29,931 nucleotides of DNA from Oligoflexus sp. (GTDB lineage: Bacteria > Bdellovibrionota_B > Oligoflexia > Oligoflexales > Oligoflexaceae): assembly GCA_041736305.1 (NCBI GenBank), contig JBGSTX010000204.1:1-29931 (forward strand), in the 5' to 3' direction. The position numbers and the translations under genes are program-made. The notes below the pieces were generated by a model that had not been told where the DNA came from, did no database searches, and saw nothing but the letters and a program-made list of their open reading frames with translations. The first letter of the stretch is position 1. Every line of letters begins with the position of its first letter. Below, in pieces: positions 2,583 through 29,357 of this stretch.

Positions 2583-2873
2583 AAGGGTTGTTTCCTTTTT
2601 AATCACGCCAATCGCGGCTGGGGGCAGCCTAGCACTCAGTCGGCTGGTGAGCAAGTCGCTTGGAACCAGGTCTGGGGTTCGCACAGCGCCGATGCGCATT
2701 GCCCTTCTGTCACCATGGTGCAGATAAAAATCAAATTCGTTCTGCAGTTCGTGGTTCACATTGCAGAAAATTTGTAGTTAATATAACAACTCTCCGTCAA
2801 TCCTAGCGGTGACACATCGGGTCGTCATTGCTCACATCGTGTCGAATCACTTTGCGTGGAGTTTTACTGGCTC

Positions 2874-3941
2874 ATGGTTTCTCTCGTTAGGGTGTTCAAA
2901 GTAGCTTTATTTTTTATCCTTTCCCTAGGGTTCACGGCATGCTTTGAAAAGTTGCCGATGTCGACGGCTCACGTAGTCACGGAATGGGGGCACGAGATCA
3001 ATCACGTGTATCTCATCACGACCGTGATCACTTGCTTAATTTTCGTCGCAGTGGCAGTTCCGTTCTGCTATGCGCTTTGGAAGTTCCGTGAGAAGCCAGG
3101 CGACACCCGCATCCCCGTCCAGGTTCGCGGCAATCATAAGCTCGAGATTCTCTGGACTCTGATTCCTGTCGTGCTGCTCATCTTCATTTTTCTCCCCTCG
3201 CTCGAAATCATTATGAAGCGCGGTGCTGAGCCTCCTGCAGGAACGTTTACGATCGAAGTAATCGGTCACCAGTGGTGGTGGGAGTTCCGTTATCCGGACC
3301 TCGGGATCGTCACAGCCAATGAGCTCTACGTCCCTGAGAAGACGCCTATCCTTCTCAAGCTGAAGTCTGCTGACGTCATCCACGCTTTCTGGATACCGCG
3401 TTGGGGTGGTAAGATGGACATGCTTCCAGGCGTGACCAACTTATTGACCTATACGACGCCTGCGGTAGAGGATCCGATTCGCGGTGACTACTACCAAGGT
3501 CATTGTACAGAACTCTGTGGTCTCTCCCACGCTCGCATGCGCTACGAAGCCATCGTCTTGCCGAAAGAACGCTTCGATCAGTGGGCTAAGACAGCCATGA
3601 ATCCTCCACTCGTCGCTTCTGCTTTGGAAAAGAAGGGGCAAGAGTTGTTCATGACCAAGACTTGCTTCACTTGCCACGCGATCGCTGGTACCACGGCGAA
3701 AGGTCAGATAGGCCCCGATCTCACCAACTTCGGCAACCGCCGTATGCTGGCTTCTGGGACCTTGCATAATGACACCAAAGGTTTTCATAACTGGCTGCGG
3801 GACTCTGTCGATTCAAAGCCCGACTATCAGAACGTCAAACCGGGCAGCTTGATGGTGTTCGCGGAAAACTTCGTCCTTACCGACGAAGATATCAAGGCGC
3901 TGCAGGCTTACCTGCAGCACTCGACCGCCAAGACTTTTTAA
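2874..3941 (+). CDS. coxB: Cytochrome c oxidase subunit II with fused cytochrome c (caa3 type)
   Basis: GHQWWWEFRY, DVIHAFW, CuA motif CTELCGLSHARM, C-terminal CFTCH heme motif, lipobox-like GFTAC. Start could be 2856 or 2874. Confidence 0.95.
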   Translation: MVSLVRVFKVALFFILSLGFTACFEKLPMSTAHVVTEWGHEINHVYLITTVITCLIFVAVAVPFCYALWKFREKPGDTRIPVQVRGNHKLEILWTLIPVVLLIFIFLPSLEIIMKRGAEPPAGTFTIEVIGHQWWWEFRYPDLGIVTANELYVPEKTPILLKLKSADVIHAFWIPRWGGKMDMLPGVTNLLTYTTPAVEDPIRGDYYQGHCTELCGLSHARMRYEAIVLPKERFDQWAKTAMNPPLVASALEKKGQELFMTKTCFTCHAIAGTTAKGQIGPDLTNFGNRRMLASGTLHNDTKGFHNWLRDSVDSKPDYQNVKPGSLMVFAENFVLTDEDIKALQAYLQHSTAKTF

Positions 3942-3981
3942 TCGAACGACGGACTATCCCTTCAGGAGGTAATGTTTTTGT

Positions 3982-5790
3982 ATGAGTAATCACAGCGCAC
4001 CCAACACTGGGTTATGGGGCTGGATCACGACGGTAGATCACAAGAAGATCGCCATTCTCTATGCGCTTTCGTCGTTGTTTTTCTTTTTTCTAGGCGGCGT
4101 CGAAGCGATGATCATGCGTACGCAGCTGATCATTCCCAACAATGATTTCGTGACGGCACGGACTTTTAACTCGATGGTAACGATGCACGGTACGACGATG
4201 ATCTTCCTCGTCGTCATGCCTCTCTCATCGGCGTTCTTCAACTTTCTGATACCGATTATGATCGGTGCTCGCGATGTAGCCTTCCCCCGGCTTAACGCGC
4301 TGAGTTTCTGGATTTTCTTTTTTGGAGGTATCCTGCTCAATGCCGGTTACTTCATCAACGAAGTGCCGCGTCAGGGCTGGTTCGGCTACGCTAACCTCAC
4401 TGACCGGCAGTATACCCCGGATCTTTCGGTGGACTTTTGGGCGATGGGTTTGCAGGTAGTCGGTCTCGCTTCGCTCATTGCCTCGATTAACTTTTTCGTC
4501 ACAATTATGAACATGCGTTGCAAGGGGATGACTCTTCTCAAGATGCCCATGTTTGTCTGGACTTCACTTGTTACCCAGGTCTTGCTCTTCCTCGCTCTGC
4601 CCGTCATTACCGTCGCTCTCGTGATGATCACCTTCGATCGGCACTTCGGAACTGGCTTCTTCAATCCAGGTGCTGGTGGTTCGGTTATCCTTTGGCAGCA
4701 CCTTTTCTGGGTCTTCGGCCATCCAGAAGTTTATATCCTCATCCTGCCAGCGATGGGTATCGTGTCCGAAATTCTGCCGACGTTTTCTAAAAAACCGCTC
4801 TTCGGCTATTCAGTCATGGTCTATTCGAGCTGTGCGATCGGCTTCCTCGGCTTTGCTGTCTGGGCTCACCACATGTTCACGACTGGTCTTGGACCCTGGG
4901 CGACCACCTTCTTTACGGCGGCGACTATGCTCATCGCTGTCCCTACCGGTGTCAAAATCTTTAACTGGATATCGACGGTCTGGGGTGGACGCATCCATTT
5001 CAACACCGCTTCGCTTTTCGGACTGAGCTTCGTTGCGATGTTCACCTTCGGCGGTCTCTCGGGGATCATGCACTCCTCAGCCCCTATCGATACGCAGCAT
5101 CAAGACACCTATTTCGTCGTCGCCCACTTTCACTATGTTCTCTACGGCGGAGCTGTGATGGGTCTTTTCGGTGGAGTTTTCTATTGGTTTCCCAAAGTCA
5201 CGGGACGTTTTCTGCACGAAGGAATGGGCAAGGTTCAGTTCTGGCTATTCATGATCGGCTTTAACGTGACCTTCTTCCCGATGCACTTCCTCGGTGTTCA
5301 AGGTATGCCTCGGCGTAACTACACCTATGCGGCGGATCAGGGTTGGGACCTGTGGAATCTCGTGGCCACTCTCGGTGCCTATACTACGGCCATCGGTGGA
5401 CTCCTCTTCTTTTACAACCTCTTTTACAGCATCAAACGCGGTGCTTTGGCTCCGGCGGATCCTTGGGATGGTCGTACCCTCGAGTGGACGATTCCTTCAC
5501 CTCCTCCTGAGTACAACTTCGGCATCGAACCCGTAGTGAAGAATCTCGACGATTTCTGGCATCAAAAATACGACGAGCAGGGTCAGCGCCTGAGCCTGCC
5601 GGCCAAGGCTTCCTATGACCCGCATTCGATTCACTTGCCGAATCCTTCCTACTGGCCTATCTGCTTGGCTGCGGGATTGACTTTGGGAGCCGCAGGCTTC
5701 TTTATCAAAGGTTTTGGACTTTATGTGAGTCTGCTGGGCGTGGCTATCGTTCTGATAAGCTCGTACGGTTGGGCCTATGAAGAAGCATAA
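3982..5790 (+). CDS. coxA: Cytochrome c oxidase subunit I (A1-type heme-copper oxidase)
   Basis: DHKKI, TMHGTTMIF, FGHPEVY, WAHHMF, AHFHY, GMPRR; two extra C-terminal TM helices; RBS AGGAGG. Confidence 0.98.
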   Translation: MSNHSAPNTGLWGWITTVDHKKIAILYALSSLFFFFLGGVEAMIMRTQLIIPNNDFVTARTFNSMVTMHGTTMIFLVVMPLSSAFFNFLIPIMIGARDVAFPRLNALSFWIFFFGGILLNAGYFINEVPRQGWFGYANLTDRQYTPDLSVDFWAMGLQVVGLASLIASINFFVTIMNMRCKGMTLLKMPMFVWTSLVTQVLLFLALPVITVALVMITFDRHFGTGFFNPGAGGSVILWQHLFWVFGHPEVYILILPAMGIVSEILPTFSKKPLFGYSVMVYSSCAIGFLGFAVWAHHMFTTGLGPWATTFFTAATMLIAVPTGVKIFNWISTVWGGRIHFNTASLFGLSFVAMFTFGGLSGIMHSSAPIDTQHQDTYFVVAHFHYVLYGGAVMGLFGGVFYWFPKVTGRFLHEGMGKVQFWLFMIGFNVTFFPMHFLGVQGMPRRNYTYAADQGWDLWNLVATLGAYTTAIGGLLFFYNLFYSIKRGALAPADPWDGRTLEWTIPSPPPEYNFGIEPVVKNLDDFWHQKYDEQGQRLSLPAKASYDPHSIHLPNPSYWPICLAAGLTLGAAGFFIKGFGLYVSLLGVAIVLISSYGWAYEEA

Positions 5791-5808
5791 GAGGAGGGGG
5801 CTAGTAGG

Positions 5809-6390
5809 ATGAGCGCGCATCTCGAGACCAATACGGGCGTTGATAACCGTAAGTTTGCTATGTGGACCTTGATCGGTTCGGAGTGCTTTCTCTTTGGCAC
5901 TCTGATCGTCAACTATATGATCAACCGCAACCGTGGGCTGGCTGGTCCGACGGGTCCTGAGATCTTCAACATCGACCTCACCACTCTTTCGACTTTCGAC
6001 CTGCTCATGAGTTCGGTGGCGATGGCCCTTGCGGTGTTTTACTGCAAGCAAAAACGGCTCCGCGCCATGCAGATCAGTCTCGCGACGGTCGTGATCTTCG
6101 GTCTCTTTTTTCTCGGCTTCCAATACTACGAGTTCAACCACTTCGTTAATGAGGGCTTGTCCCTCGGCACCAATATTTTTGGTTCCTCTTTTTACCTGCT
6201 GACAGGTTGTCACGGCATTCACGTTGCCATCGGTGTTATGATCATCAGTACCTTACTGATCCAATCGCTCATCAAGGGGGAAAGTTGGTTCAACGATGAT
6301 GTGGTCGAGATCTGTGGCCTTTACTGGCACTTTGTTGATGTTATCTGGATCATTATTTTTACAGTCGTTTTACTTTTAGTTTTGATCTAG
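5809..6390 (+). CDS. coxC: Cytochrome c oxidase subunit III (short form)
   Basis: SECFLF, FYLLTGCHGIHV, GLYWHFVDVIW. Confidence 0.95.
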   Translation: MSAHLETNTGVDNRKFAMWTLIGSECFLFGTLIVNYMINRNRGLAGPTGPEIFNIDLTTLSTFDLLMSSVAMALAVFYCKQKRLRAMQISLATVVIFGLFFLGFQYYEFNHFVNEGLSLGTNIFGSSFYLLTGCHGIHVAIGVMIISTLLIQSLIKGESWFNDDVVEICGLYWHFVDVIWIIIFTVVLLLVLI

Positions 6391-6402
6391 GAGCAAGAGA
6401 TC

Positions 6403-6699
6403 ATGGCCCACGAAGAGCACAGTGCTCATGCAACCGTCTCACTCTACTGGATTTTCTGTGTGATCCTCGGGATCATCACGGCCTTAGAGTGGGCTATTTT
6501 CAAGTATAAAGACCCCTGGGGAGTCAGTAATTTCGCCCTCATTACATCTCTGAGTGTGATGTCGGTCGTGAAGTTCATCATGGTCGTCGGCTGGTACATG
6601 CATTTGCGCTACGACCCGAAGATGATTAAGTTCGTCTTCATCTTCTCATTTTTGATGATCAGCGGAACGGCAGCTGGCCTGCTTATGCTTATGGCCTGA
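6403..6699 (+). CDS. Cytochrome c oxidase subunit IV family protein
   Basis: Three TM segments, KF..V..WYMHLRYD motif, position in the operon. Confidence 0.88.
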   Translation: MAHEEHSAHATVSLYWIFCVILGIITALEWAIFKYKDPWGVSNFALITSLSVMSVVKFIMVVGWYMHLRYDPKMIKFVFIFSFLMISGTAAGLLMLMA

Positions 6700-6769
6700 G
6701 CTTGAATCCAGCGTGAAATAAGGCTAAGGTGTGGACCTCGCGTCTTTTTGATGAGTCGAGGTTTTACCT

Positions 6770-7672
6770 ATGCCTAGCCTTTACGCCCATGCGCTCTACG
6801 ACAGACTTCCCAACGATCTCTTCGTCTTCAAGTGGGATTTCGATCCAACGCTTTTTTTCTTCGTATTCATGCTCATCTTTTACATCCGCGGTTACCGTCG
6901 ATTCAAACGCAAGCCCGTCAAGCCTTGGCAGCTGCTATGCTTTGGTTTGGGCGTTAGCCTTTGTATACTTGGTCTGATGCCGCCAGTTGACCCGCTTTCC
7001 GATCAGCTCTTCTGGGCCCACATGATTCAGCATATGATGATCGCCCATTTGGGTGTTCCTCTAATGCTCTTCGGCATTCCGTTTTTCGTCGTCTTGCGGG
7101 GCATTCCCAATTGGGCCAGACGCTATATATATTTTCCGCTCTTGCGTAGTCGGGTCTTTGAGTTTCTAGGCAAGACCATAGCTCGCCCGCTGCCTTCTCT
7201 GATCTTTTTCGAAGCATCCTTTTGGTTCTGGCATATTCCACGCTTTTACAATCTAGCTCTGCTGAACGATTTTTTTCATATCCTTGAACACGCAAACTTC
7301 GCCTTGGCAGCTATGCTTCTGTGGCGTAATATTATCGATCCGCATCCCATGCGTTCCCCTCTTCCGCTTCCTGCCCGCATGCTCTTTTTGGCTGCGATGG
7401 AAGCTTCAGGCATCATCCTCAGCGCGATTCTGACTTTTTCAGATGATATCCTCTATGCTTACGAGGGTATTCCGATGCCTGCTTGGTGGGCGCATTGGGG
7501 CCATCTTCAGGATCAACGCCTCGGCGGGCTGATCATGTGGGTTCCCGGTGGTTTTATCAATCTGATGGCTCTCACTGCTGTATTTTTCGTCTGGGTGCAG
7601 AGGGAAGAGAAGAAAGATAAGAAGCTCAAAGAAGCCGAAGCACAGACCTTGCGACCGCTCAGTGTTTCCTGA
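6770..7672 (+). CDS. ctaG: caa3-type cytochrome c oxidase assembly factor (Caa3_CtaG family)
   Basis: LFWAHMIQHM, WFWHIP, HILEH, DQRLGGLIMWVPG. Confidence 0.88.
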   Translation: MPSLYAHALYDRLPNDLFVFKWDFDPTLFFFVFMLIFYIRGYRRFKRKPVKPWQLLCFGLGVSLCILGLMPPVDPLSDQLFWAHMIQHMMIAHLGVPLMLFGIPFFVVLRGIPNWARRYIYFPLLRSRVFEFLGKTIARPLPSLIFFEASFWFWHIPRFYNLALLNDFFHILEHANFALAAMLLWRNIIDPHPMRSPLPLPARMLFLAAMEASGIILSAILTFSDDILYAYEGIPMPAWWAHWGHLQDQRLGGLIMWVPGGFINLMALTAVFFVWVQREEKKDKKLKEAEAQTLRPLSVS

Positions 7673-7736: not shown

Positions 7737-7813
<77 letters not shown>

Positions 7814-10979: not shown

Positions 10980-12611
10980 TTACATGTAGCTTTCGTCGTC
11001 GTGAGAATGACCTGCACCGCCGCCTTTGGATTTTTTCTCAGGCTTGTCGGTGATGAGGGCTTCGGTCGTCAAGAGTAGGGCAGCGACCGAGGCAGCGTTG
11101 GCAAGCGCCGTCTTGGTAACCTTGGCTGGATCGATGACGCCAGCCTTAAGAAGGTCTTCGTACTGCTCGGTATAGGCGTTGAAGCCGTAGCCGTCTTTGC
11201 CATTCCGAATTTTTTCGACGATAGGAGCGGGTTCGAGACCAGCGTTAAGCAGGATTTGCCGTAGTGGCTCTTCAACTGCGCGACGGATGATGTTCACGCC
11301 GTGCTGCTGATCGGTGCTCAATTTCAAGCCTTTGAGGGCTTCTTGGCAACGCAGGAGAGCGACTCCACCGCCGGCAACTACGCCCTCGGCGACAGCTGCG
11401 CGGGTCGAATGCAGAGCATCTTCAACGCGAGCCTTCTTCTCTTTCATCTCAGCTTCAGTCGCAGCGCCAACCGAAATCACCGCAACTCCGCCGACTAATT
11501 TAGCCAGACGTTCTTGCAATTTTTCTTTGTCATAATCGCTAGTCGACTCTTCGACGTGACGACGGATGAGCTTGACGCGGGCGTCGATGCTGGCCTTATC
11601 ACCGTTACCGCTGACGATAGTGGTGTTGTCTTTGTCGATGGTCACGCGCTTGGCGAAGCCCAGAGACTCGACGGAAGCATTTTCGAGCTTGAGGCCGAGG
11701 TCTTCAGCGATCAGTTCGCCACCGGTGAGGATAGCGATGTCTTCGAGCATGGCTTTGCGACGATCACCGAAAGCCGGAGCTTTGACGGCAGCAATGCGGA
11801 GGACGCCGCGCAGCTTGTTGACGACGAGCGCAGCGAGAGCCTCGCCTTCGATGTCTTCGGCGATGATCAGAAGTGGCTTCTGGAGGCGAGCTACCTTCTC
11901 CAGTACGGGCAGCAGCTCTTTCATGTTCGAGATTTTCTTCTCGCAGACGAGAATGAAAACGTCTTCCAACTCGACAGTCATACGCTCTGAATTGGTGACG
12001 AAATAAGGCGAGATATATCCACGATCGAACTGCATTCCCTCGACGACGTCGAGCACGGTTTCCATGCCCTTGGCTTCGTCGACGGTGATAACGCCGTCAC
12101 GACCGACTTTTTCCATCGCATCGGCGAGGATTTCACCGATTTCTCTATCGTTGTTGGCAGAAATGCTGCCGACGTGAGCGATCCCTTCGCGCGTGTCGCA
12201 GGGCTTAGCCATGCCTTCGATATACTTGAGGATGGCTGCAACCGCGATATCAACACCGCGCTTCAGTTCCATCGGGCTGTGACCGGCTGCTACCAGCTTA
12301 TTGCCTTCGCGGAAAATGGCCTGAGCCAGTACCGTAGCCGTCGTGGTTCCATCACCAGCTGTATCGGCTGTGCGTGACGCCACTTCTTTGACGAGCTGGA
12401 CGCCCATGTTTTCGAAGCGGTTGTCCAGTTCGATTTCTTTCGCTACCGTCACACCATCTTTGGTGATGAGGGGAGAGCCGAAAGATCGGCTAATCAAAAC
12501 ATTGCGGCCCTTTGGCCCCAACGTTACTTTCACTGCGTTAGCGAGAGTGTCGACGCCCCTGAGGATAGCATCGCGCGACTCGCTGCCGAAGTTGATCATT
12601 TTAACGCTCAT
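10980..12611 (-). CDS. groL: Chaperonin GroEL
   Basis: [54 protein letters not shown]. Confidence 0.99.
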
Positions 12612-12643
12612 TCAAAATTCTCCTTGGTTGATGACAAGTTCGA

Positions 12644-12931
12644 TCAGTCAAGAACCGCGAGCACGTCATCTTCCCGCATGATGAGGTGGTCGTCGCCACT
12701 GATCTTGATTTCGTTGCCGGCGTACTTCGAGTAAAGAACGCGGTCGCCAGCCTTCAGTTCAGGCTTAACAACTTTGCCGTCCTTGAGGACCCGACCATTG
12801 CCGACAGCGATAACCTGACCTTCAACCGGCTTTTCCTGCGCGTTATCCGGGATAATGATCCCGCCTGCAGTCTTGGTTTCACCGATCAGTGGCTTTATTA
12901 CGACTCGATCCTGTAAAGGTCTCACCTTCAT
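12644..12931 (-). CDS. groS: Co-chaperonin GroES
   Basis: RPLQDRV, KTAGGIIIPD, YSKYAGNE. Confidence 0.99.
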   Translation of the reverse strand: MKVRPLQDRVVIKPLIGETKTAGGIIIPDNAQEKPVEGQVIAVGNGRVLKDGKVVKPELKAGDRVLYSKYAGNEIKISGDDHLIMREDDVLAVLD

Positions 12932-12984
12932 AGTTTTTTCTCCTCGTTAATAGACAGGCTTAGAATTTCAAAAATTCAGAGCTT

Positions 12985-13012
12985 AAAGTAAAGCTCCTCC
13001 TGGATCTGTCAA
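12985..13012 (-). promoter_or_regulatory. Putative sigma70-type promoter of groESL
   Basis: TTGACA-N16-TACTTT on the minus strand; no CIRCE repeat seen. Confidence 0.5.
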
Positions 13013-13168
13013 CCGACCCTTGCAAATATTTGAAGCACGAGCTGGCGTGGAGAGCCTTCAAGGTGTCATTTTGCCGAGATGAGGAACCGAGACTTTTAGT
13101 CGCTTTAAATGGAGGAGCTTCTGTTATACTGCCCAACGGCGATGCTAAGTGCGAAAAGGACAGCTAGT

Positions 13169-13654
13169 ATGGGCTTGGTTCCCTCGTATCACGTTTCAAA
13201 TTTTTCCAATATGTTGGTGGTCGGTTGGCGCGAATGGGTGGCTTTACCAGCTCTCGGCGTCGACCGAATTAAGGCTAAGATCGACACGGGGGCGCGTACA
13301 TCGACCTTGCACGCCTTCGATATCGAAATTGTGAAGGTCCGCGGCAAAGAAGTGGTACGATTCAAAGTCCACCCTTTGCAGCGCCAAAGTAAGCGGGTGA
13401 TTGTCTGTCAAGCTGATCTAGTTGATGAACGTTTGGTGCGGAGCTCTTCAGGTCATTCTACTCTTCGACCCGTTATCATGACAAAGATTCAGGTGGGGCC
13501 TTGGTCCTGGGACATCGAAATCACGCTGACCAACCGCGATAAAATGGGATTTCGTATGCTGATAGGACGCCAAGCCATACGCAAACATTTGCTGGTTCAC
13601 CCCGGAAAGTCTTTTATCCTTGGGGCGCGTAAACGGAAAATCGAGGTTATTTGA
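13169..13654 (+). CDS. RimB-like retropepsin-fold protease ('ATP-dependent zinc protease' family)
   Basis: [26 protein letters not shown]...[19 protein letters not shown]; stop overlaps the rimK start (TGATG). Start at 13169 chosen for its AAAAGGA RBS. Confidence 0.9.
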
Positions 13655-14571
13655 TGAAGCTTACTATCCTTTCCCGCAAGAAGGATCTGTACTCGACCCG
13701 GCGTCTCGTAGAGGCTGCCGAGCAGCGCGGTCATCAGATTCGCGTGATCGATTACCTTCGCTGCTACATGAATATTACTTCGACCGATCCGAAGATTTTC
13801 TATGGGCATCAGGAAATCACCGGTGTCGATGCAGTGATTCCTCGCATTGGAGCTTCCTATACCTTCTACGGAACGGCTGTCGTACGGCAGTTCGAATTGA
13901 TGAATATTTTCGTCATCAACACTTCGCAGGCAATCGCCCGCTCGCGCGACAAGCTGCGCTGTCTGCAGAAGCTCGCTAAAGCCGGCATCAATCTGCCGGT
14001 GACCGGCTGTGCTCACAGCACCAAAGACGTCGATGGTCTCATTGAAGTCGCTGGTGGAGCACCCCTGGTGGTCTAGCTCCTCGAGGGCACCCTGGGGATC
14101 GGTGTCGTGCTGGCTGAAACTAAAAAAGCGGCTGAGTCGGTCATCGAAGCTTTTCGGGGTCTCGACGCCAATATCATCGTGCAGGAATTTATTCGCGAAG
14201 CTGCCGGCAGCGATATTCGCTGCTTCGTCGTTGGTGATCGGGTCGTCGCGTCGATGATGCGGAAGGCTGCCGAAGGCGAATTCCGTTCGAATCTTCACCG
14301 CGGCGGCAGCGGCCATCTGGTCGACATTACGGAAGCTGAGCGGGTCATGGCAGTAAAAGCGGCACAAGTCATGGGACTGGAAGTGGCTGGAGTCGATATT
14401 CTGCGTTCCTCGCGAGGCCCTGTGATTATGGAAGTGAATTCGTCGCCGGGACTCGAGGGTATTGAAAAGACCAGCAAGCTTAATGTAGCAGGTATGATTA
14501 TCGAGCACATTGAGAAGCGTTTGCTAGAGATAGCCGAACGACCGCGCCCGGACGAGGAAGTTTGTCAGTAG
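13654..14571 (+). pseudogene. rimK: RimK alpha-L-glutamate ligase interrupted by an in-frame TAG at 14074-14076 (true pseudogene or sequence error)
   Basis: The two track ORFs (13651-14076 and 14107-14571) are one frame: [76 protein letters not shown]. Confidence 0.9.
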
Positions 14572-14597
14572 TTGCTAAGAGACGGGGAGGTCGGCCT

Positions 14598-15635
14598 TTG
14601 CCAGATAACGTATGCTCCTTTCGAGATTTTCTTAAACAGAGTCTGAAGGATACTGAAGTCTTCCGCGGCGTTGAACGAAAGGTCGATCTCTTGCTCGAGA
14701 TCGTGCTGCTTCTCACCAATTATCAGGAAGAGGGGATCAGCCTCTTTCCCGTCATTTTCGTGAGCGATTCGCTCGAACGGATCATGAAAGATCTGCATGG
14801 GCTGGAAGCGATCCATATCGGTGAGGGCCCTAATCAACGCGAGACTTTTATCCGGGCTTTCAAAGCCTGCGCTCCGTTGGGAGAGGATCGCTTGTGGGCT
14901 GTCGCGATCATCGTGAAGGGTGATCGTATAAGCTATGGCATTTTCCGTTCTGATGCCTCGCCTCTAGCTCCTTCCGTATTCGAGCGTCTCAGAGGCATGA
15001 TGGTACCCGAAGGCGGAATAGTCGGACTCACCCGTCTCGGCAATAATTTTGTTGAAATTCGCAGCAGCAATGGCAAGTTTCAGTATATCAACGTCTCAGG
15101 TCTAGCTGGCGATGAGCACCATCCGGTCCAGGTCATCCGGGCTTTTGTTGAGACGGTCTCTAGCGATAGCAAGCCCGAACTCAAAAACTTGGTCCAGTCC
15201 TTCTACTATCGTCTCGGCATGGATATACTGCACGGAACGCACGGAACCTTGATCGCCATTCAGAAGACCGGGCTCGCCATCCCCGAGTTTCTCGAAGATG
15301 GCATCCACCTGCGGCCTTCGCTGAAGATCGCTGAAGCCATAGAATCTATCGCAGCCACACCCCATAATCGCGAGTCCTATTTGCGGCTCTTGTCCTATGG
15401 CCAGCTCCTCCGCAAGCTAACTTGGTTGGACGGTATCACTCTCCTCGATACCGAAGGCAGCCTCTTAGCTTATCGCTGTTTCATCCGCGGAGCTGCTCCC
15501 GATCCTCTCACGCTCCATTTTGGAGGCGCCCGCAGCCGGGCCTATGACGTCATGCAACGCTATGTTCCCTCTCGCCTCTCGGGGGCGTTCTCTAAGTCTC
15601 AAGACGGTCAGATGAATTTTCGTGCTTCGAAATAA
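14598..15635 (+). CDS. Uncharacterised protein with C-terminal DisA_N/diadenylate-cyclase-like domain
   Basis: HGTLIAI...WLDGITLLD...GGARSRAY...SQDG follows the DAC motif order (GALIV, DGA, G-x-RHR-A, S-x-D/E-G). TTG start at 14598 follows a GGGGAGG RBS. Confidence 0.6.
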   Translation: MPDNVCSFRDFLKQSLKDTEVFRGVERKVDLLLEIVLLLTNYQEEGISLFPVIFVSDSLERIMKDLHGLEAIHIGEGPNQRETFIRAFKACAPLGEDRLWAVAIIVKGDRISYGIFRSDASPLAPSVFERLRGMMVPEGGIVGLTRLGNNFVEIRSSNGKFQYINVSGLAGDEHHPVQVIRAFVETVSSDSKPELKNLVQSFYYRLGMDILHGTHGTLIAIQKTGLAIPEFLEDGIHLRPSLKIAEAIESIAATPHNRESYLRLLSYGQLLRKLTWLDGITLLDTEGSLLAYRCFIRGAAPDPLTLHFGGARSRAYDVMQRYVPSRLSGAFSKSQDGQMNFRASK

Positions 15636-15643
15636 TATGCTGT

Positions 15644-15671
15644 GAAGGAAGGGGCTTTTGGCCCCTTCTTC
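15644..15671. terminator. Hairpin between convergent DAC-like gene and hsp20
   Basis: GAAGGGGC-TTTTG-GCCCCTTC stem-loop. Confidence 0.6.
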
Positions 15672-15679
15672 GTCAGTCG

Positions 15680-16240
15680 TTAAGCAAGAGCCCGGTTTAG
15701 TTCGTCGGAAGTAGCCTTCTCGGCTCCCGTATCGCTGAGCAGGGATTCAAAAAGTCTGCCTTTACCTTCTCCAATCGTCAGGCGCTTCGGCTGAATCGGC
15801 TCCGCTTTGGGGACGAGAATGTAGAGGACGCCATTCTCATAGTTAGCTTCTATCTCTTCCCCTTTAACGTTTTCAGGTAGTGTAAAAGCTCGCTTGAATT
15901 CACCGTGCCGGCGTTCTTGCCAACGAGCTCGCTGATCGCCCGCTGTGGCCTCGGGATTGCGCGTTCCACCCACTGTCAAAGTTTTCTGCTTCAGTTCTAT
16001 ATTTATATCTTCTTTCTTAAATCCTGGTAGATCAAAGCTCAGAAGAAAGGCCTTGTCGCTCTCTTGAATATCGCAGGCCGCCAAGTGGCCGAGTTGCGAT
16101 TCTTGCGTTCGACGCCCTTGTGTTCCTCGGCTATCAAATGCCTGAAAAAACGTATCAAAGTCGCGTGTGACTGCATCCCAGGTCGATAGCAATGAACGAG
16201 GATAAGAGTCTTGAGGACGGCGCAGCTCGAAACTTAGCAT
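15680..16240 (-). CDS. Hsp20/alpha-crystallin small heat shock protein
   Basis: DLPGFKKEDI, ERRHGEFKRAFTLP, ANYENGVLYILVPK, IxI-like LTI. Start at ATG 16240 after AAGGAGA, not 16375. Confidence 0.93.
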   Translation of the reverse strand: MLSFELRRPQDSYPRSLLSTWDAVTRDFDTFFQAFDSRGTQGRRTQESQLGHLAACDIQESDKAFLLSFDLPGFKKEDINIELKQKTLTVGGTRNPEATAGDQRARWQERRHGEFKRAFTLPENVKGEEIEANYENGVLYILVPKAEPIQPKRLTIGEGKGRLFESLLSDTGAEKATSDELNRALA

Positions 16241-16395
16241 AGTGAAATCTCCTTGGTTTTGATTCACTTGGGAGATTCGTTTTTCTCTCCCCTTTCCTGA
16301 ATCAAACTTAATTCGCCTTTTCTCGGCGTCAAGGAGCGAAGGCCGCAATTTTTTTGATTGCGGATTTTTATCCAAAGATTAGGGGCTGATATGTC

Positions 16396-17684: not shown

Positions 17685-18674
17685 TTATTTTTTTTGCTGA
17701 GTAGTTTGCTCTTCCGTACAGCGAGCCTCTACCAAGCCCCAGTCTTTCTTGGACCAGCGCTGCTTTTCGCTACTGTAGTAGAAAGAAAGGCCGTCTAGCG
17801 CATAGGTGATCGCTTCTTGCTGGTCGAGAGTCTGCAATTTAATGAAGCGTTGATAGGGGTACCAGTCGCGAGCTTCTTTCTGAAATCCTTCGAGTGGGCT
17901 TTGTGAGAGTTCAACTGCCCCCTGCCAGTTGATGAGGAGGAGACGTTCGCCTGAAGGATGGTGGGCGGCACCGGTGATCTTGCCGAAAGGGAGGCGACCC
18001 AGCGGTTGCGCTATAAGGGCCCCCTCGCCAAAGGGCTGGCGGAGTTCAAAAACCTGGCTTTTGCCCTTCTGCTTGGTGAAGAGATGAATGTTGCCACTGC
18101 GAGGGTGCACCGCCAAGGCTTCGACGTCGAAGCGCTCGTTGCCCTCGTACTTAAAGTGCAGAGTCTGGCGCCGCGGAATCCCATCGAAGAGTCGAGCCTC
18201 TTCGATAATGTGTATCTGGTGGTCCGAGCGAAGGCGGAGGTTATCGCCCGTGTCGGCGATATATAGGCACGAACCCGACCAGGGACAGGGTCCGCTCGCG
18301 ATATCTTCGACGTCGCTGTTTCGGTCTCCAAAACGGATTTTGCCCTGCAGCTGCCCTCGCGCATTAGTGATGAGGAGATCAGGGTTATTGCCAGAGTCGG
18401 TGATGTGATAGAGCGTATCCGCCCAATGCCGCGACCAGGCCAGGCCGCTCATCTCTTCGAGCAGGGGCGAGAGGTTCACACCCTCGTTCAGTCGAAAGTC
18501 CCATTTGCTGCAGAGAGCTGGGCTAATAGGGCTGGGGGCTAGCAGGGCCGGAGGAGGGGGAAGCTGAGGCTTCACCTGAGCCTGCTGCGAGATCGAAGGA
18601 GAAGGCGCCCAGAGCGCCAGGAGCCAGCTGAGACTGAGGAGTCCGCCGCCGTAGAAGATTAGATCTCGCCGCAT
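17685..18674 (-). CDS. Exported/membrane-anchored beta-propeller-like hypothetical protein
   Basis: N-terminal hydrophobic segment, Pro-rich linker, repeated blade-like motifs EMSGL, DSGN, DVEDIA, LYIADTGDN, DVEALA, QEAIT. Confidence 0.65.
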   Translation of the reverse strand: MRRDLIFYGGGLLSLSWLLALWAPSPSISQQAQVKPQLPPPPALLAPSPISPALCSKWDFRLNEGVNLSPLLEEMSGLAWSRHWADTLYHITDSGNNPDLLITNARGQLQGKIRFGDRNSDVEDIASGPCPWSGSCLYIADTGDNLRLRSDHQIHIIEEARLFDGIPRRQTLHFKYEGNERFDVEALAVHPRSGNIHLFTKQKGKSQVFELRQPFGEGALIAQPLGRLPFGKITGAAHHPSGERLLLINWQGAVELSQSPLEGFQKEARDWYPYQRFIKLQTLDQQEAITYALDGLSFYYSSEKQRWSKKDWGLVEARCTEEQTTQQKK

Positions 18675-24934: not shown

Positions 24935-25162
24935 TTAGCGCTTTAGAAGCTGGTGCTCTATTTTGCCAATGGCGAACGCTATGAGTATATACTCGACACA
25001 AACTTGCACAGCTCGCTCCAGATTGAGGACGATGATGTCCTGGGCGTCGATATCTGTCAGCAACAGACTGAGCTGAGTCGGCTTCTTTTGGCGCACACGT
25101 TGCAAGCAGCGGAGGACTGTTTCGCTTTTTTCAGTGAGAAGTTGTGCATTTACTTTTCCCAC
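24935..25162 (-). pseudogene. C-terminally truncated HepT/DUF86 (HEPN) toxin
   Basis: QDIIVLNLERAVQVCV is typical of the DUF86 N-terminal half; the start overlaps the mntA stop; only 75 aa with no R-x4-6-H motif; the tail is read from the 50-bp repeat. Confidence 0.8.
24945..24994 (+). repeat. 50-bp direct repeat, copy 1
   Basis: AGAAGCTGGTGCTCTATTTTGCCAATGGCGAACGCTATGAGTATATACTC; 48/50 identical to 27383-27432. Confidence 0.95.
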
Positions 25163-25536
25163 GCTTTCAGCCTCTCTTGCAGAATTTTTTCAACGAATCG
25201 CCCATCGTCTTCACGCTCATACCACATCCGTTTTAGCAGCTGCTCATAGATGCTTGCATCACGCAGCAAGATGATCGTTCCGCCGGTGAGGATTTCTGTG
25301 AGAAGAGCGCCATGAGCCTTGCGAAAATCGACAAGGTCCACTTCGCGCTGAAGCAGGTGCCTGATGCGATCCGCGAGATTCAGCAGAGCCTCTGGATCGA
25401 GGGGCTTGTCCTTGTGCACCGCCACGTCCACATCAGATTCAGGACCTTCCAGTCCCTTGGCGAAGGAGCCGTAGAGGACAGCCATACCGATGTCTAGCTC
25501 CTGACTCAGGAAAGCGCTCAGCTTTTCTTTTACCAT
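25150..25536 (-). CDS. mntA: MntA-type minimal nucleotidyltransferase antitoxin
   Basis: LYGSFAKG...SDVDVAV (GS-x10-DxD), REVDLVD; directly upstream of the HEPN gene; GGAGGAG RBS. Confidence 0.88.
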   Translation of the reverse strand: MVKEKLSAFLSQELDIGMAVLYGSFAKGLEGPESDVDVAVHKDKPLDPEALLNLADRIRHLLQREVDLVDFRKAHGALLTEILTGGTIILLRDASIYEQLLKRMWYEREDDGRFVEKILQERLKAWEK

Positions 25537-25608: not shown

Positions 25609-26742
25609 TCATTTACGTTTGACGATTCTTGCTTTCTTTTCGCCCCAGAAAAGTAGGTAGGCCCCTTTGTTTTGCATCCCTCCAGCAATATATCTTTTTC
25701 CATTCCATTCAATCAGGTCTTTGGGTTGAATTTTGTATCTTTGTTCCCTGATCGAAGGTGCCTGACCATTTCTATTTTGTTGAATAGAGCGGTTGTTTCG
25801 TCTTTTTTGCGCAATTAAGAAGACCTGTGTTCGCTTTTGATGACGACCTCTTGCAATGATAAAGGCATCATTATTATGGGTTTTTGGAATGCCGAGCTGC
25901 TCCCGCTCAAATTTTGTTTCATAGCCAAAAGCTTCCGAGAAGTCTGGATTGCGCTTTAGCAGCTGGCTGCGAACGATATTCATCATGGTCGCGGTTTTGA
26001 GAGTCTTGTGCTTTTTGATATTGATTTGCAGCTTGCCAGCATGCAGATCGGCATGATGTTTTTCGCAAAGTGTCAGAAGGTTTGAAGGGGCATCGCTTCC
26101 GCCCCGACTTTTGAACAAAATGTGGTGAACATGAAGCTTTTCCACGCAGCCTTTTTTCCCTGCCTGACAAGTATAGCCATCTCTGGCAAGGATATACTGT
26201 TTGACATTATAAAAGCCTTTTTGAACTCCGTCTTGATAATTTTTCCCCGAAATATCGGGCTTGTTGATTTTCGCCATATCAAAGTTATTGGCTTCAATAA
26301 TGATCTTTGAGATTGGCAAGATTTTTTGCAGATTTCTGATGATCTGCTCGTGAGTCCCCACTTTTTGCTTGATTGAGGGCTGCAGTGCCTTTCTCTTTCG
26401 ATTGTCAAACCTCGCTGCCCTGTAACGGGTTTTATTCCCGCGCCTAGTCCTACGGTAGGATCTTCTTTCAGTCACTTTTTCTGAAACGTCCGTGCGGATT
26501 TTGTATTCGGCTGCAAAAACTTCGTTGGTTTCAGAAGTTACGCTGACTCCAACCGTCCCAAATCCAAGATCCTGACCTAGAGTCAAAGGCTGAACCGCGT
26601 CTTCAGATCGGTAAGTCAATTGAATCGTGAAGGGAAACCGTTTGACGACTTTCACCTTTCCGTCCCGCATGCAGCGGCGCACCCACCCATGCCTTGCGGT
26701 GGGCATGAGCGGCTTTCCGGTTTTTGATAAGACATAAACCAT
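25609..26742 (-). CDS. iscB: IscB RNA-guided endonuclease (OMEGA system)
   Basis: PLMP domain, PFTIQL, RuvC-I GQDLG, Arg-rich bridge helix RRSYRRTRR...RYRAARFDNR, RuvC-II IIEANNFD, HNH HVHH...GGSD..SNLLTLC..HH, RuvC-III THNNDA. Confidence 0.95.
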   Translation of the reverse strand: MVYVLSKTGKPLMPTARHGWVRRCMRDGKVKVVKRFPFTIQLTYRSEDAVQPLTLGQDLGFGTVGVSVTSETNEVFAAEYKIRTDVSEKVTERRSYRRTRRGNKTRYRAARFDNRKRKALQPSIKQKVGTHEQIIRNLQKILPISKIIIEANNFDMAKINKPDISGKNYQDGVQKGFYNVKQYILARDGYTCQAGKKGCVEKLHVHHILFKSRGGSDAPSNLLTLCEKHHADLHAGKLQINIKKHKTLKTATMMNIVRSQLLKRNPDFSEAFGYETKFEREQLGIPKTHNNDAFIIARGRHQKRTQVFLIAQKRRNNRSIQQNRNGQAPSIREQRYKIQPKDLIEWNGKRYIAGGMQNKGAYLLFWGEKKARIVKRK

Positions 26743-27033
26743 TTTCTTTTTTCTCCCCCGTCAGGGGGCCTGTAAAGCAGCCTTGCGGCTGTGGATTCTC
26801 TTCGACACTGTTATCCGGCGGTTTTTGTGAAAAGCACTGTTCCTACCCATCAGAACTGTTTAGCCGTTCACCCCAGAGCCTGGAACTAGAGAAGCATCCC
26901 AAGGTGGCTATGTCATTCGCCAGTAACGTAGCCTTGTTGCCAAGGCTGAGTCTAATCAATCAAGAGCTTGGAAATTGGTTTCCTTCTTTCCAAGCCCTAC
27001 CCATACCCGTCAGGGTTGGGTGGGGTGATTGAC
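25613..27033 (-). mobile_element. Non-autonomous IS200/IS605-superfamily (Isc) element: omegaRNA plus iscB, no tnpA
   Basis: Sharp end GTCAATCACCCC at 27033 with a subterminal hairpin; visibly more AT-rich than the flanking housekeeping genes; other end inferred from ATGA at 25612-25609 and uncertain. Confidence 0.75.
26745..27033 (-). ncRNA. omegaRNA scaffold (HEARO-like)
   Basis: About 290 nt upstream of iscB beginning GTCAATCACCCCACCCAACCCTGACGGGTATGGGTAGGGCTTG; contains AGACTCAG, CTACGTT, GGATGC...CTAGT and TAAACA motifs and 3' hairpins CAGCC-GCAA-GGCTG and CCCCC-TGAC-GGGGG. Confidence 0.88.
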
Positions 27034-27662: not shown

Positions 27663-29357
27663 GTGAATATGTCTCTGGTCAAGAACCTTTCTATCTCAAT
27701 TGCATCACTGTTTGCAGTATTTCCTAGGACAGGCAGAGCTGATGTTCGTAGTGAACTTCTCCGTCCTGATCTGCGCGAGGCAGATGAAATCTTTGCCGAG
27801 CGATCTCTTCTCATGTCCCACAGCCGCATCTTGCGACATCCTAAGGCGGGGGCTGGCGAGCCCTGGTCGTTTGGAGGAGTGATGAAAGAGCTGGCTCGTG
27901 CTCACTTTCGCAAGAAGGATGTGAGTGCCGAGGAGTTCAATGCCTTTGTCAGGCAGTGGCTTCAGAGCTTTGAGTCCCAGAGACCAGGAATACGTACACA
28001 TCTGACCTGTCTTTGGGCTCTTGGCAAAGCCGACCCTAAAGGCGATTGCAATACTGTCCTCCTTAGGCCTGAGAATGCCCCTTTCAAACTTCTGGCTGCT
28101 AATTATCGCCCAGATTTTGCAAAAGAATCCTGCGAGGGAGAAGCTGGCGAATTCCGTCTCACTTACGGACTCACGCTCGATGTGCCACGCGGTCGTCATC
28201 CTGCAGATCTTCCCGGCGAGGAGATGACTCTCATCTTTGAATACGATCTAGCCAAAGTCAACTCCCCACTCCGTCCAGGAGATTGGGCAATGAGCTTTGA
28301 AAAGTTGAGCAGCCCGGATCTCTGCAGTGACTTCTGCGGAAGCTATCTGCAACAGTTCGACCGCATCATGGAGCGAGTGACTCAGTATGATCCAAGTTCA
28401 AGCCAAAATCCTCCTATAGCTCTCGGCCAATTACGAAGCAATGAACTGGTGGGCGATCCACTCTTTACCCCTGCTTTGAGCGCGAGCCTCCGTGCAATCG
28501 CCGACAGTCTGAGCCAGTGCTATCTCGATTTAGTGCGAAGTGCCGAGAATCCCCTCTTGGGCCTGCAAGTCTGCTCTAAAAATATAGTTGTCCCCGCGGG
28601 GCCTACAGCGCAAGCGGTCCATCTCATCAAAAACGTCGTTGATACAGTCATCACACTGGCTCAAAAGCCAGGCGCGCTGCCGATTCCTAAAAACCTCGTT
28701 TCGATCTTGACTGAAGTGCTCGCTGGTGTATCAAATCGAATATTCCCACGCTGGGAAATGCGCGAAGCGGAGCTCAACTCTTTTGGACTCCAGGGGCGCA
28801 TGACCAAAGATACGCCTGACCTTCGCCTCAACAATTCGGTTCAGCTGCGGGATTTCGTCAACCAACACGAGGTCGCTATCTTAGACGGAAGCGTCAATCT
28901 CAATCTTGAAATGGATCGTCTCGGTCTGCAAAGAGATTTTCAGCCCCTCGTCAATCCTTTCGATCCCTGGCGCTTCAACAAAGTCGCTGGTCTGTCAACG
29001 GATATGGTTCAGGATGCCCGGTTACGCTCAAAATTTGCGCAGCTCACATGCGGTGGCTGTCATGCCACGCAGGCGGGCACAAATGGGTTGCTTTCCGTTC
29101 TGACCGATATCCTGACTCATGCTCCTCATACGGGAGAGCTACTCGCTTATGCGAATACGCTTTTACAAGAACATAAGGCAGCAGACCTGCACCTAGAGAA
29201 CATCGATGCTTTCTATATGATATCGCCCATACGCAATCCGGGATTCGCTGGGCAGGCTCATCTAGCTCGCTTTCTGACCAAGGATGGAGGTGACCTCGAT
29301 AAGCGCGCTGTTAAGATGCTAGAGCTAGTGGATGGAGTGGGTGCGTGTAGGCTTTAA
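27663..29357 (+). CDS. Exported uncharacterised protein with a single CxxCH (putative c-type cytochrome)
   Basis: 564-aa ORF, signal-like N terminus, TCGGCH near the C terminus; motif blocks WSFG, APFKLLA, AGEFRL, LIFEY, QLRSNE, WEMRE. Confidence 0.7.
   Translation: MNMSLVKNLSISIASLFAVFPRTGRADVRSELLRPDLREADEIFAERSLLMSHSRILRHPKAGAGEPWSFGGVMKELARAHFRKKDVSAEEFNAFVRQWLQSFESQRPGIRTHLTCLWALGKADPKGDCNTVLLRPENAPFKLLAANYRPDFAKESCEGEAGEFRLTYGLTLDVPRGRHPADLPGEEMTLIFEYDLAKVNSPLRPGDWAMSFEKLSSPDLCSDFCGSYLQQFDRIMERVTQYDPSSSQNPPIALGQLRSNELVGDPLFTPALSASLRAIADSLSQCYLDLVRSAENPLLGLQVCSKNIVVPAGPTAQAVHLIKNVVDTVITLAQKPGALPIPKNLVSILTEVLAGVSNRIFPRWEMREAELNSFGLQGRMTKDTPDLRLNNSVQLRDFVNQHEVAILDGSVNLNLEMDRLGLQRDFQPLVNPFDPWRFNKVAGLSTDMVQDARLRSKFAQLTCGGCHATQAGTNGLLSVLTDILTHAPHTGELLAYANTLLQEHKAADLHLENIDAFYMISPIRNPGFAGQAHLARFLTKDGGDLDKRAVKMLELVDGVGACRL

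Follow-up and report, generated by a model that had tools for sequence, protein, structure and literature searches.

A predicted tandem DAC-fold protein encoded behind rimB-rimK in Oligoflexus, probably a stand-alone signalling enzyme

In a 29,931-nucleotide stretch of DNA from Oligoflexus sp. (positions 1 to 29,931 of contig JBGSTX010000204.1, assembly GCA_041736305.1; hereafter, the window), the genes for a RimB-like protease and the glutamate ligase RimK are followed on the same strand by a third gene, orf3, whose product carries motifs of the diadenylate cyclase (DAC) fold. An earlier note on this DNA proposed that orf3 takes the place of the Pseudomonas EAL protein RimA, the three genes forming a glutamylation module under the control of a nucleotide signal. 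The question raised by the locus is whether orf3 belongs with rimBK in function or only in position. As will be detailed, orf3 stands behind rimBK only in this lineage, and its product is therefore probably a signalling enzyme that acts on its own rather than a regulator of ribosome modification.

Layout and integrity of the locus

The three genes are tightly packed, as had been described: their coordinates (Table 1), the TGATG overlap between rimB and rimK (13652-13656), and the 26-nt spacer between rimK and orf3, containing GGGGAGG ahead of a TTG codon, were all confirmed. The use of this TTG as start (14598) is consistent with the starts of homologues. The rimB product reaches 122.9 bits (E 8.7e-36) against NF052261 (RimB), under the cut-off of 200. 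The single hairpin said to close the unit is also present (−24.1 kcal/mol over a 71-nt stretch, z −2.56, with 2 of 200 shuffles equally good), but it has no U-tract, and the terminator scan did not report it. No sigma-70-like promoter was found on the plus strand between 11500 and 17500. In an RNA run of a related strain (X5), contigs lie on groES, rimB and hsp20 and none on orf3, a pattern that has no bearing on expression. The order of the three genes is real in a second strain, because record 9 of run X2 spans 12600-15648 unbroken; for the same reason, a misassembly of the arrangement was rejected.

As assembled, rimK carries an in-frame TAG (14074-14076) at the conserved Lys141, which the earlier note had overlooked, and the T at 14093 changes a Gln to Leu. 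Contigs of two runs from two studies, X1, which may be the source sample, and X2, a strain matching at ~98.6%, read A at both positions, restoring AAG (Lys) at the first. Lys is found at position 141 in 28 of the 29 other rimK loci shown, and Gln is mostly kept at position 147. Since the contigs read A and relatives keep Lys, rimK is very probably intact and the TAG, like the second T at 14093, is most likely an assembly error. Recoding of the TAG was rejected, as rimK itself ends with TAG, no tRNA with a CUA anticodon was found and the contigs of both studies read AAG; this last observation also led to the rejection of a real pseudogene.

Table 1. Features of the rimB-rimK-orf3 locus (positions in the window; a dot marks a feature with no strand)
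Feature	Position	Strand	Remarks
groES, divergent from rimB, conserved upstream context	12644..12931	-	upstream in 13/13 same-genus rimK loci
rimB-like retropepsin protease, DTG motif	13169..13654	+	PF05618 E 1.8e-36
rimK, ATP-grasp glutamate ligase	13654..14571	+	NF007764 424.7 bits, above cut-off; 1 TAG
Two T bases: 14074 (Lys141 to stop), 14093 (Gln147 to Leu)	14074..14093	+	A at both in X1 and X2 contigs
Shine-Dalgarno-like GGGGAGG	14584..14590	+	7 nt 5' of TTG 14598
orf3, 345-aa soluble, predicted tandem DAC-fold protein	14598..15635	+	AF2 pLDDT 84.8, pTM 0.82
N-terminal degenerate DAC fold (DACNH-like), predicted, without DGA/RHR	14598..15113	+	VIA and Foldseek of separate model
YQEEG motif, N-domain	14721..14735	+	E44 136/138, E45 138/138, G46 127/138
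C-terminal DAC domain, predicted, aa 177-345	15126..15632	+	VIA Z 10.9, rmsd 3.5, 124 aligned to DisA 3c1y; Foldseek
DGI motif, aa 278-280, catalytic Asp D278	15429..15437	+	D 138/138, G279 137/138; aligns with DGA
GGARSRA motif (canonical GTRHRA), GARSRA = aa 310-315	15522..15542	+	R312 138/138, R314 131/138
SQDG motif	15597..15608	+	S334 136/138, D336 135/138, G 137/138
GC-rich hairpin, interval between orf3 and convergent hsp20	15639..15676	.	without U-tract
hsp20, convergent	15680..16375	-	PF00011 E 2e-24; longest ORF, true start later

Linkage of orf3 to rimK

The survey of gene neighbourhoods covered 47 loci of orf3 relatives (30 from genomes and 17 from metagenomes, two of them identical), 41 of which include at least 1 kb of upstream sequence. 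By tblastn, rimK or rimB was found near the relative at none of the 47, and a family profile detected orf3 at none of 29 other rimK loci, searched with flanks of about 1.5 kb, a few of which are cut by contig ends; these counts include kin and are not independent. The surveyed homologues are thus unlinked to rimB-rimK, an outcome that the earlier note had listed as speaking against its proposal.

Within the genus, rimK is present in all 14 genomes, and a close orthologue of orf3 in 6 of 13, always on a different contig from rimK (6/6). The usual gene order is groES, rimB, rimK and then a gene of the opposite strand (hsp20 in 7 of 13 genomes, an MCP gene in two that were checked with Pfam). In genome G009, whose rimK is the most similar (91% identical), an inverted repeat, read by eye directly after rimK, is followed by hsp20, with nothing between. 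In view of G009 and of the usual order in the genus, the arrangement is most simply explained if orf3 was inserted, in this lineage, in front of the hairpin that follows rimK. Close orthologues occupy at least two other contexts (ThiF/GAF-kinase and NDH-2), and their synteny is conserved in four same-genus genomes. The five nearest sequences (61-65% identity), which lie outside the 47-locus survey, group with orf3 (SH-aLRT 89). The family is patchy in the class, being found in 8 of 131 genomes, all of one genus, and a search of the phylum covered no families beyond those of the class search.

Some copies in the genus deserve a separate mention. A seventh same-genus genome (G001) holds a distant, long-branch family member with insertions (L098:1477-2661), and another (G010) a fragmentary second copy (L099:1471-2152). 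With regard to rimK, genome G006 shows two equal-scoring matches 5.7 kb apart (C1:5966954-5973571), reflecting either a tandem duplication or an assembly repeat.

The locus resembles Pseudomonas rimABK in that rimB and rimK are adjacent, and probably co-transcribed with a gene of the nucleotide-signalling type. It differs in that RimA is an EAL phosphodiesterase kept in the operon across plant-associated pseudomonads, whereas orf3 has a predicted DAC fold and is linked to rimBK in one lineage only. The single EAL gene of the genome lies on another contig, and there is none at the rimBK locus. A terminal Glu of ribosomal protein S6 is needed for modification by RimK, and S6 ends with EEK, EEN or EER, not Glu, in all 13 complete genes of the genus (L100:17-427 in the source genome, other copies at L102-L114). 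The RimK substrate in this genus may not be unprocessed S6. For Pseudomonas S6, the accessible part of one study states that a penultimate Asp-to-Lys change blocks modification (PMC4741518).

Taken together, it is very unlikely that orf3 acts as an analogue of RimA, controlling glutamylation by RimK and RimB either by means of a cyclic dinucleotide or through direct binding. The compact layout would fit such a role, with the short gap on the same strand, the strong ribosome-binding site and one hairpin after orf3, as would the occurrence of the arrangement in a second strain, the lack of an EAL gene at the locus and, as far as the consulted sections go, the precedent of RimK control by RimA and c-di-GMP (PMC7343187; PMC11957791). 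Against it stand the missing linkage in both surveys, the rimK-hsp20 interval of G009, free of orf3, and the S6 termini; the available portions of published work add that the ATPase activity of Pseudomonas RimK was not stimulated by c-di-AMP (PMC10092738) and that rimB and rimK without rimA are common (PMC10092738; PMC11957791). The adjacency of rimK and orf3 is, in all likelihood, incidental, and the rimBK-orf3 locus itself is of little interest because the module for ribosome modification proposed earlier is not borne out. The statement that the arrangement had no prior description can be kept, the literature, judged mostly by titles and abstract openings, showing no link between rimK and a DAC.

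Fold and active site of orf3

Searched alone, orf3 matches neither the Pfam DAC family nor any NCBIfam family. A word-indexed search returned 28 matches, including orf3 itself, and the family, clustered at 50% identity, numbers 524 clusters or more (E<=0.001). The gene is under purifying selection (pN 0.24, pS saturated, compared with the relative at locus L043), and its GC content (0.53, GC3 0.59) is similar to that of neighbouring genes.

In the AF2 model, residues 177-345 match DisA, CdaA and CdaM, with six DACs at VIA Z 9.4-10.9 and the next match at 4.1, and Foldseek is concordant. The earlier assignment of the protein to the DAC fold is thereby upheld, by the Foldseek comparison that had been suggested as a check as well as by VIA. 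Residues 29-156 show the same succession of secondary-structure elements as residues 196-343, which prompted the separate modelling of residues 1-172 (pLDDT 88). The six top VIA matches of this second model are all DACs, at Z 6.6-8.5 with the next at 4.0, values below 8 being of a kind that can reflect merely a common arrangement, and only DACs occur among the Foldseek matches listed (best E 9.8e-4, DacM). The N-terminal region, previously given as about 200 residues and unrecognised, has about 172 residues and is itself predicted to be a DAC fold. At the sequence level, profile comparison (hhalign) found no similarity of the N-half to the C-half and no signal between the N-half and CdaA, and only two N-halves out of 45 were matched by PF21750 (DACNH), at E 0.11. 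PF02457 matches 12 of 138 family members at E<=1 (best E 0.0022), all sequence-level DAC matches staying below cut-off, and in the ESM Atlas neighbours of orf3, PF02457/PF21750 are found in 11-37% of members. The duplication of the DAC fold thus rests on structure; in view of the gap in Z and the agreement of the two methods, the models almost certainly depict a genuine tandem DAC fold. DACNH is presented, in the part of the source consulted, as a very distant DAC relative without catalytic residues, a description that the degenerate N-domain fits (PMC13640721). Structure prediction of an orf3 homodimer with 2 ATP and 2 Mg gave a score of 0.17 (mark 0.42), a value that speaks neither for nor against the face-to-face dimer of catalytic domains typical of DACs.

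Motifs were examined in an alignment of 138 sequences, which includes the query, 110 near-full-length sequences from the 150 listed among the 524 clusters (two of them also word-indexed matches) and 7 further word-indexed matches. Alignment to DisA 3c1y and to the host CdaA bears out the earlier reading of DAC motifs in the right order but altered (DGI, RSR): DGI and GARSRA fall in register with HDGA and GTRHRA of the host CdaA, and with the matching motifs of DisA. Among the 27 closest sequences, D278, G279, I280, GGAR, R314 and S334 are invariant, and D278 stays invariant across sequences 23-65% identical. At the Thr position of GTRHR, 129 of the 138 sequences have Ala, and the His position is variable. 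The His preceding DG is also replaced in the family, a position at which DisA itself has Met. SQDG is presumably the counterpart of SEE in CdaA. The N-domain lacks catalytic residues yet conserves YxEEG, CAPL and W100; mapped from the order of elements, these would lie in the alpha1-beta1 and alpha3-beta3 loops, which in CdaA help to form the active site, according to the section of the source consulted (PMC10167629).

The earlier note had left room for a catalytically dead protein. This reading is disfavoured by the invariance of D278 and R312 in all 138 sequences and by the similar motifs of PanS, which, in the accessible part of a preprint, is active with DGF/GGR and makes cUA or c-di-AMP (bioRxiv 10.64898/2026.08.10.743927). 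Motif changes of this kind are thus no proof of inactivity, since such PanS variants are reported to be active, and orf3 probably has enzymatic activity, to judge from its conserved residues.

Related systems, partner gene and proposed role

Compared with DisA, CdaA and CdaM (PF02457), orf3 shares the predicted fold of its C-terminal half, the catalytic Asp-Gly and both Arg of RHR. It differs by a score below the Pfam cut-off, by GARxR in place of GTRHR, by the second, degenerate DAC fold that precedes, and by the absence of transmembrane, HhH or YojJ-type domains. In CdaG/DS-2C (DACNG-DACNH-DAC, CBASS-DAC; PMC13069673), a degenerate DAC-related domain likewise lies directly before the DAC; the consulted passages state that DACNG-DACNH-DAC proteins make c-di-AMP (bioRxiv 10.64898/2026.08.10.743927), in vitro in the case of DS-2C (same preprint; PMC13640721). 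Unlike these proteins of about 550 residues, orf3 has 345 and no DACNG, does not reach PF21750, and has no CD-NTase or effector nearby. PanS (Panoptoo/PanDA) is also a divergent DAC in which the motif Thr is replaced by a small residue, and such variants, as far as the source was available, are active and can make 3'3'-cUA. It is, however, a single domain of about 150 residues, always beside an S2TM-beta effector, whereas orf3 has double that length and lacks an effector gene of this type beside it. These families are reportedly defined by Galperin 2023, and orf3 may correspond exactly to one of the 22 families given there. No description of the orf3 family or of the partner gene presented below was found in the literature, judged mostly by titles and abstract openings, with preprint supplements and Galperin 2023 outside the comparison.

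A tree from a quick search (midpoint root), built from 45 rows after removal of partial genes, places orf3 in a clade of 29 rows without partner (SH-aLRT 98), most of which bear Bdellovibrionota or Myxococcota titles, and the sister group is tightly coupled to a partner gene of about 440 codons. This partner (~435-455 aa) lies directly downstream in 16 of 48 loci; at 15 of these the two genes are −16 to +8 nt apart, and at one the partner stands beside a partial gene. It overlaps or adjoins distant relatives of orf3 at their 3' end (e.g. L065:7014-8336 and L069:6936-8243, plus 13 loci) in Bacteroidota, Armatimonadota, Deltaproteobacteria and others. Such a partner is found only in the sister group: orf3 has none downstream, and the partner profile had no match in the source genome (92.7% complete). 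The partner belongs to no Pfam or PADLOC family, and PADLOC gave nothing meaningful for it or for orf3. Among the neighbours of its predicted structure are clusters of AF_1680/VrlM, Abi_C and DUF4145, together with forms fused to a caspase or kinase; none of these passes the Atlas naming bar, and they presumably merit the label HEPN-like. Dedicated defence genes, a designation resting on the analyst's judgement of ORFs of at least 110 aa, occur near 5 of 13 scanned partner loci versus 2 of 17 partner-less loci, both small numbers. Those at partner loci are a type IIG restriction-modification gene, a CBASS cyclase, a CBASS 2TM effector, AbiE and an Argonaute-associated nuclease; the defence-specific matches at partner-less loci are TIR and AbiEi, the rest being judged generic domains. 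The partner and its DAC-fold gene constitute a candidate undescribed two-gene defence system.

We cautiously favour the view that orf3 encodes a stand-alone nucleotide-signal synthase of the DACNH-like plus DAC type, with a catalytic C-domain and an N-domain that regulates or completes its site, carried as a passenger on the rimBK transcript. The C-domain, in which the catalytic Asp, the two Arg and an acidic SQDG loop are preserved, would bind NTP and metal and condense two NTPs into a dinucleotide signal, either c-di-AMP or, given the lost Thr and His, another dinucleotide. The N-domain, with its own YxEEG, CAPL and Trp in putative pocket-building loops, may regulate the active domain or complete its site. 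The lineage may derive from the two-gene cassette and would have been kept without the partner in Bdellovibrionota and Myxococcota. Once moved between rimK and the hairpin, orf3 would probably be read through from the rimBK promoter, RimK not being a dedicated target. Points against a synthase are the loss of the RHR His and of the preceding Thr, and sequence-level DAC matches that remain below cut-off; nor did the analysis turn up a receptor for a product. Moreover, a second source of c-di-AMP is not obviously needed, because the genome already encodes a canonical CdaA-CdaR elsewhere (PF19293 and PF02457, YbbR; locus L090).

The same lost residues, the replaced His before DG and the presence of CdaA-CdaR could instead point to a stand-alone receptor without synthesis, whose conserved Asp and Arg bind NTP or the c-di-AMP made by the host CdaA; the conservation of pocket-side residues in both folds would suit it as well. 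We consider this rather unlikely, since the catalytic Asp is invariant over so wide a range of identity, DisA has Met before DG too, PanS is reported active with GGR in the part consulted, and orf3 lacks an output domain; no longer fused forms were found among 8000 scored candidates of 694-2000 aa, a weak test. It is still less probable that orf3 represents the synthase half of a guard-type immunity system like PanS/OptS, with an effector encoded elsewhere in the genome. The fixed partner of the sister group in 15 full-length loci, the defence genes near part of these, the Abi_C and DUF4145 neighbours of the partner and the patchy distribution in the class would agree with immunity, whereas the unmatched partner profile in the source genome, the scarcity of defence-specific matches at partner-less loci, the neighbour-like base composition, the synteny kept within the genus and the absence of relatives among viral contigs tell against it.

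A more speculative form of the synthase view, to which we give limited credence, would combine the two folds into one intramolecular asymmetric site. Asp278, SQDG and the Arg pair would come from the C-domain and the invariant Glu-Glu loop from the N-domain, and one chain by itself might thus make a dinucleotide of non-canonical type (mixed or linear). The target of this signal in the sister group would be the undescribed HEPN-like effector of ~440 aa found in defence islands; the synthase alone would be retained by predatory Bdellovibrionota and Myxococcota as a source of a cellular messenger. Beyond the locus, the family is of interest in that it was missed by Pfam, NCBIfam and PADLOC and that each half of its predicted tandem DAC fold has a conserved pocket. 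Some of its members, moreover, are accompanied by the undescribed partner in the vicinity of defence genes. As DAC domains were shown only recently, in the consulted parts of 2026 preprints, to make non-canonical immune signals, the soluble 345-residue protein offers a cheap test case for the range of DAC signals and for the function, described as unknown, of DACNH-type domains.

Several features elsewhere in the window may be mentioned. An IscB-like gene (RRXRR and HNH, 377 aa, 25609-27033, minus strand), of low GC and part of an OMEGA-type element, is preceded upstream by a HEARO/omega RNA (RF02033, 134.8 bits). Close to it, at 24935-25536 on the minus strand, a minimal nucleotidyltransferase gene (PF18765) is followed by a 75-aa ORF, which has no Pfam match and which we take to resemble a truncated HEPN/DUF86 partner. 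Short stretches near 24950 and 27400 are similar to each other, LYFANGERYEY occurring two times in the ORF text, and suggest that sequence around the IscB element was duplicated. Long ORFs with no Pfam match at E<=0.001 are found at 27663-29357 (plus strand, 564 aa) and 17685-18674 (minus strand, 329 aa). Finally, a cytochrome c oxidase-type cluster with the assembly factor gene ctaG, the only one of its genes scanned, extends over 2856-7672 on the plus strand and is followed by tRNA-Asp (7737-7813).
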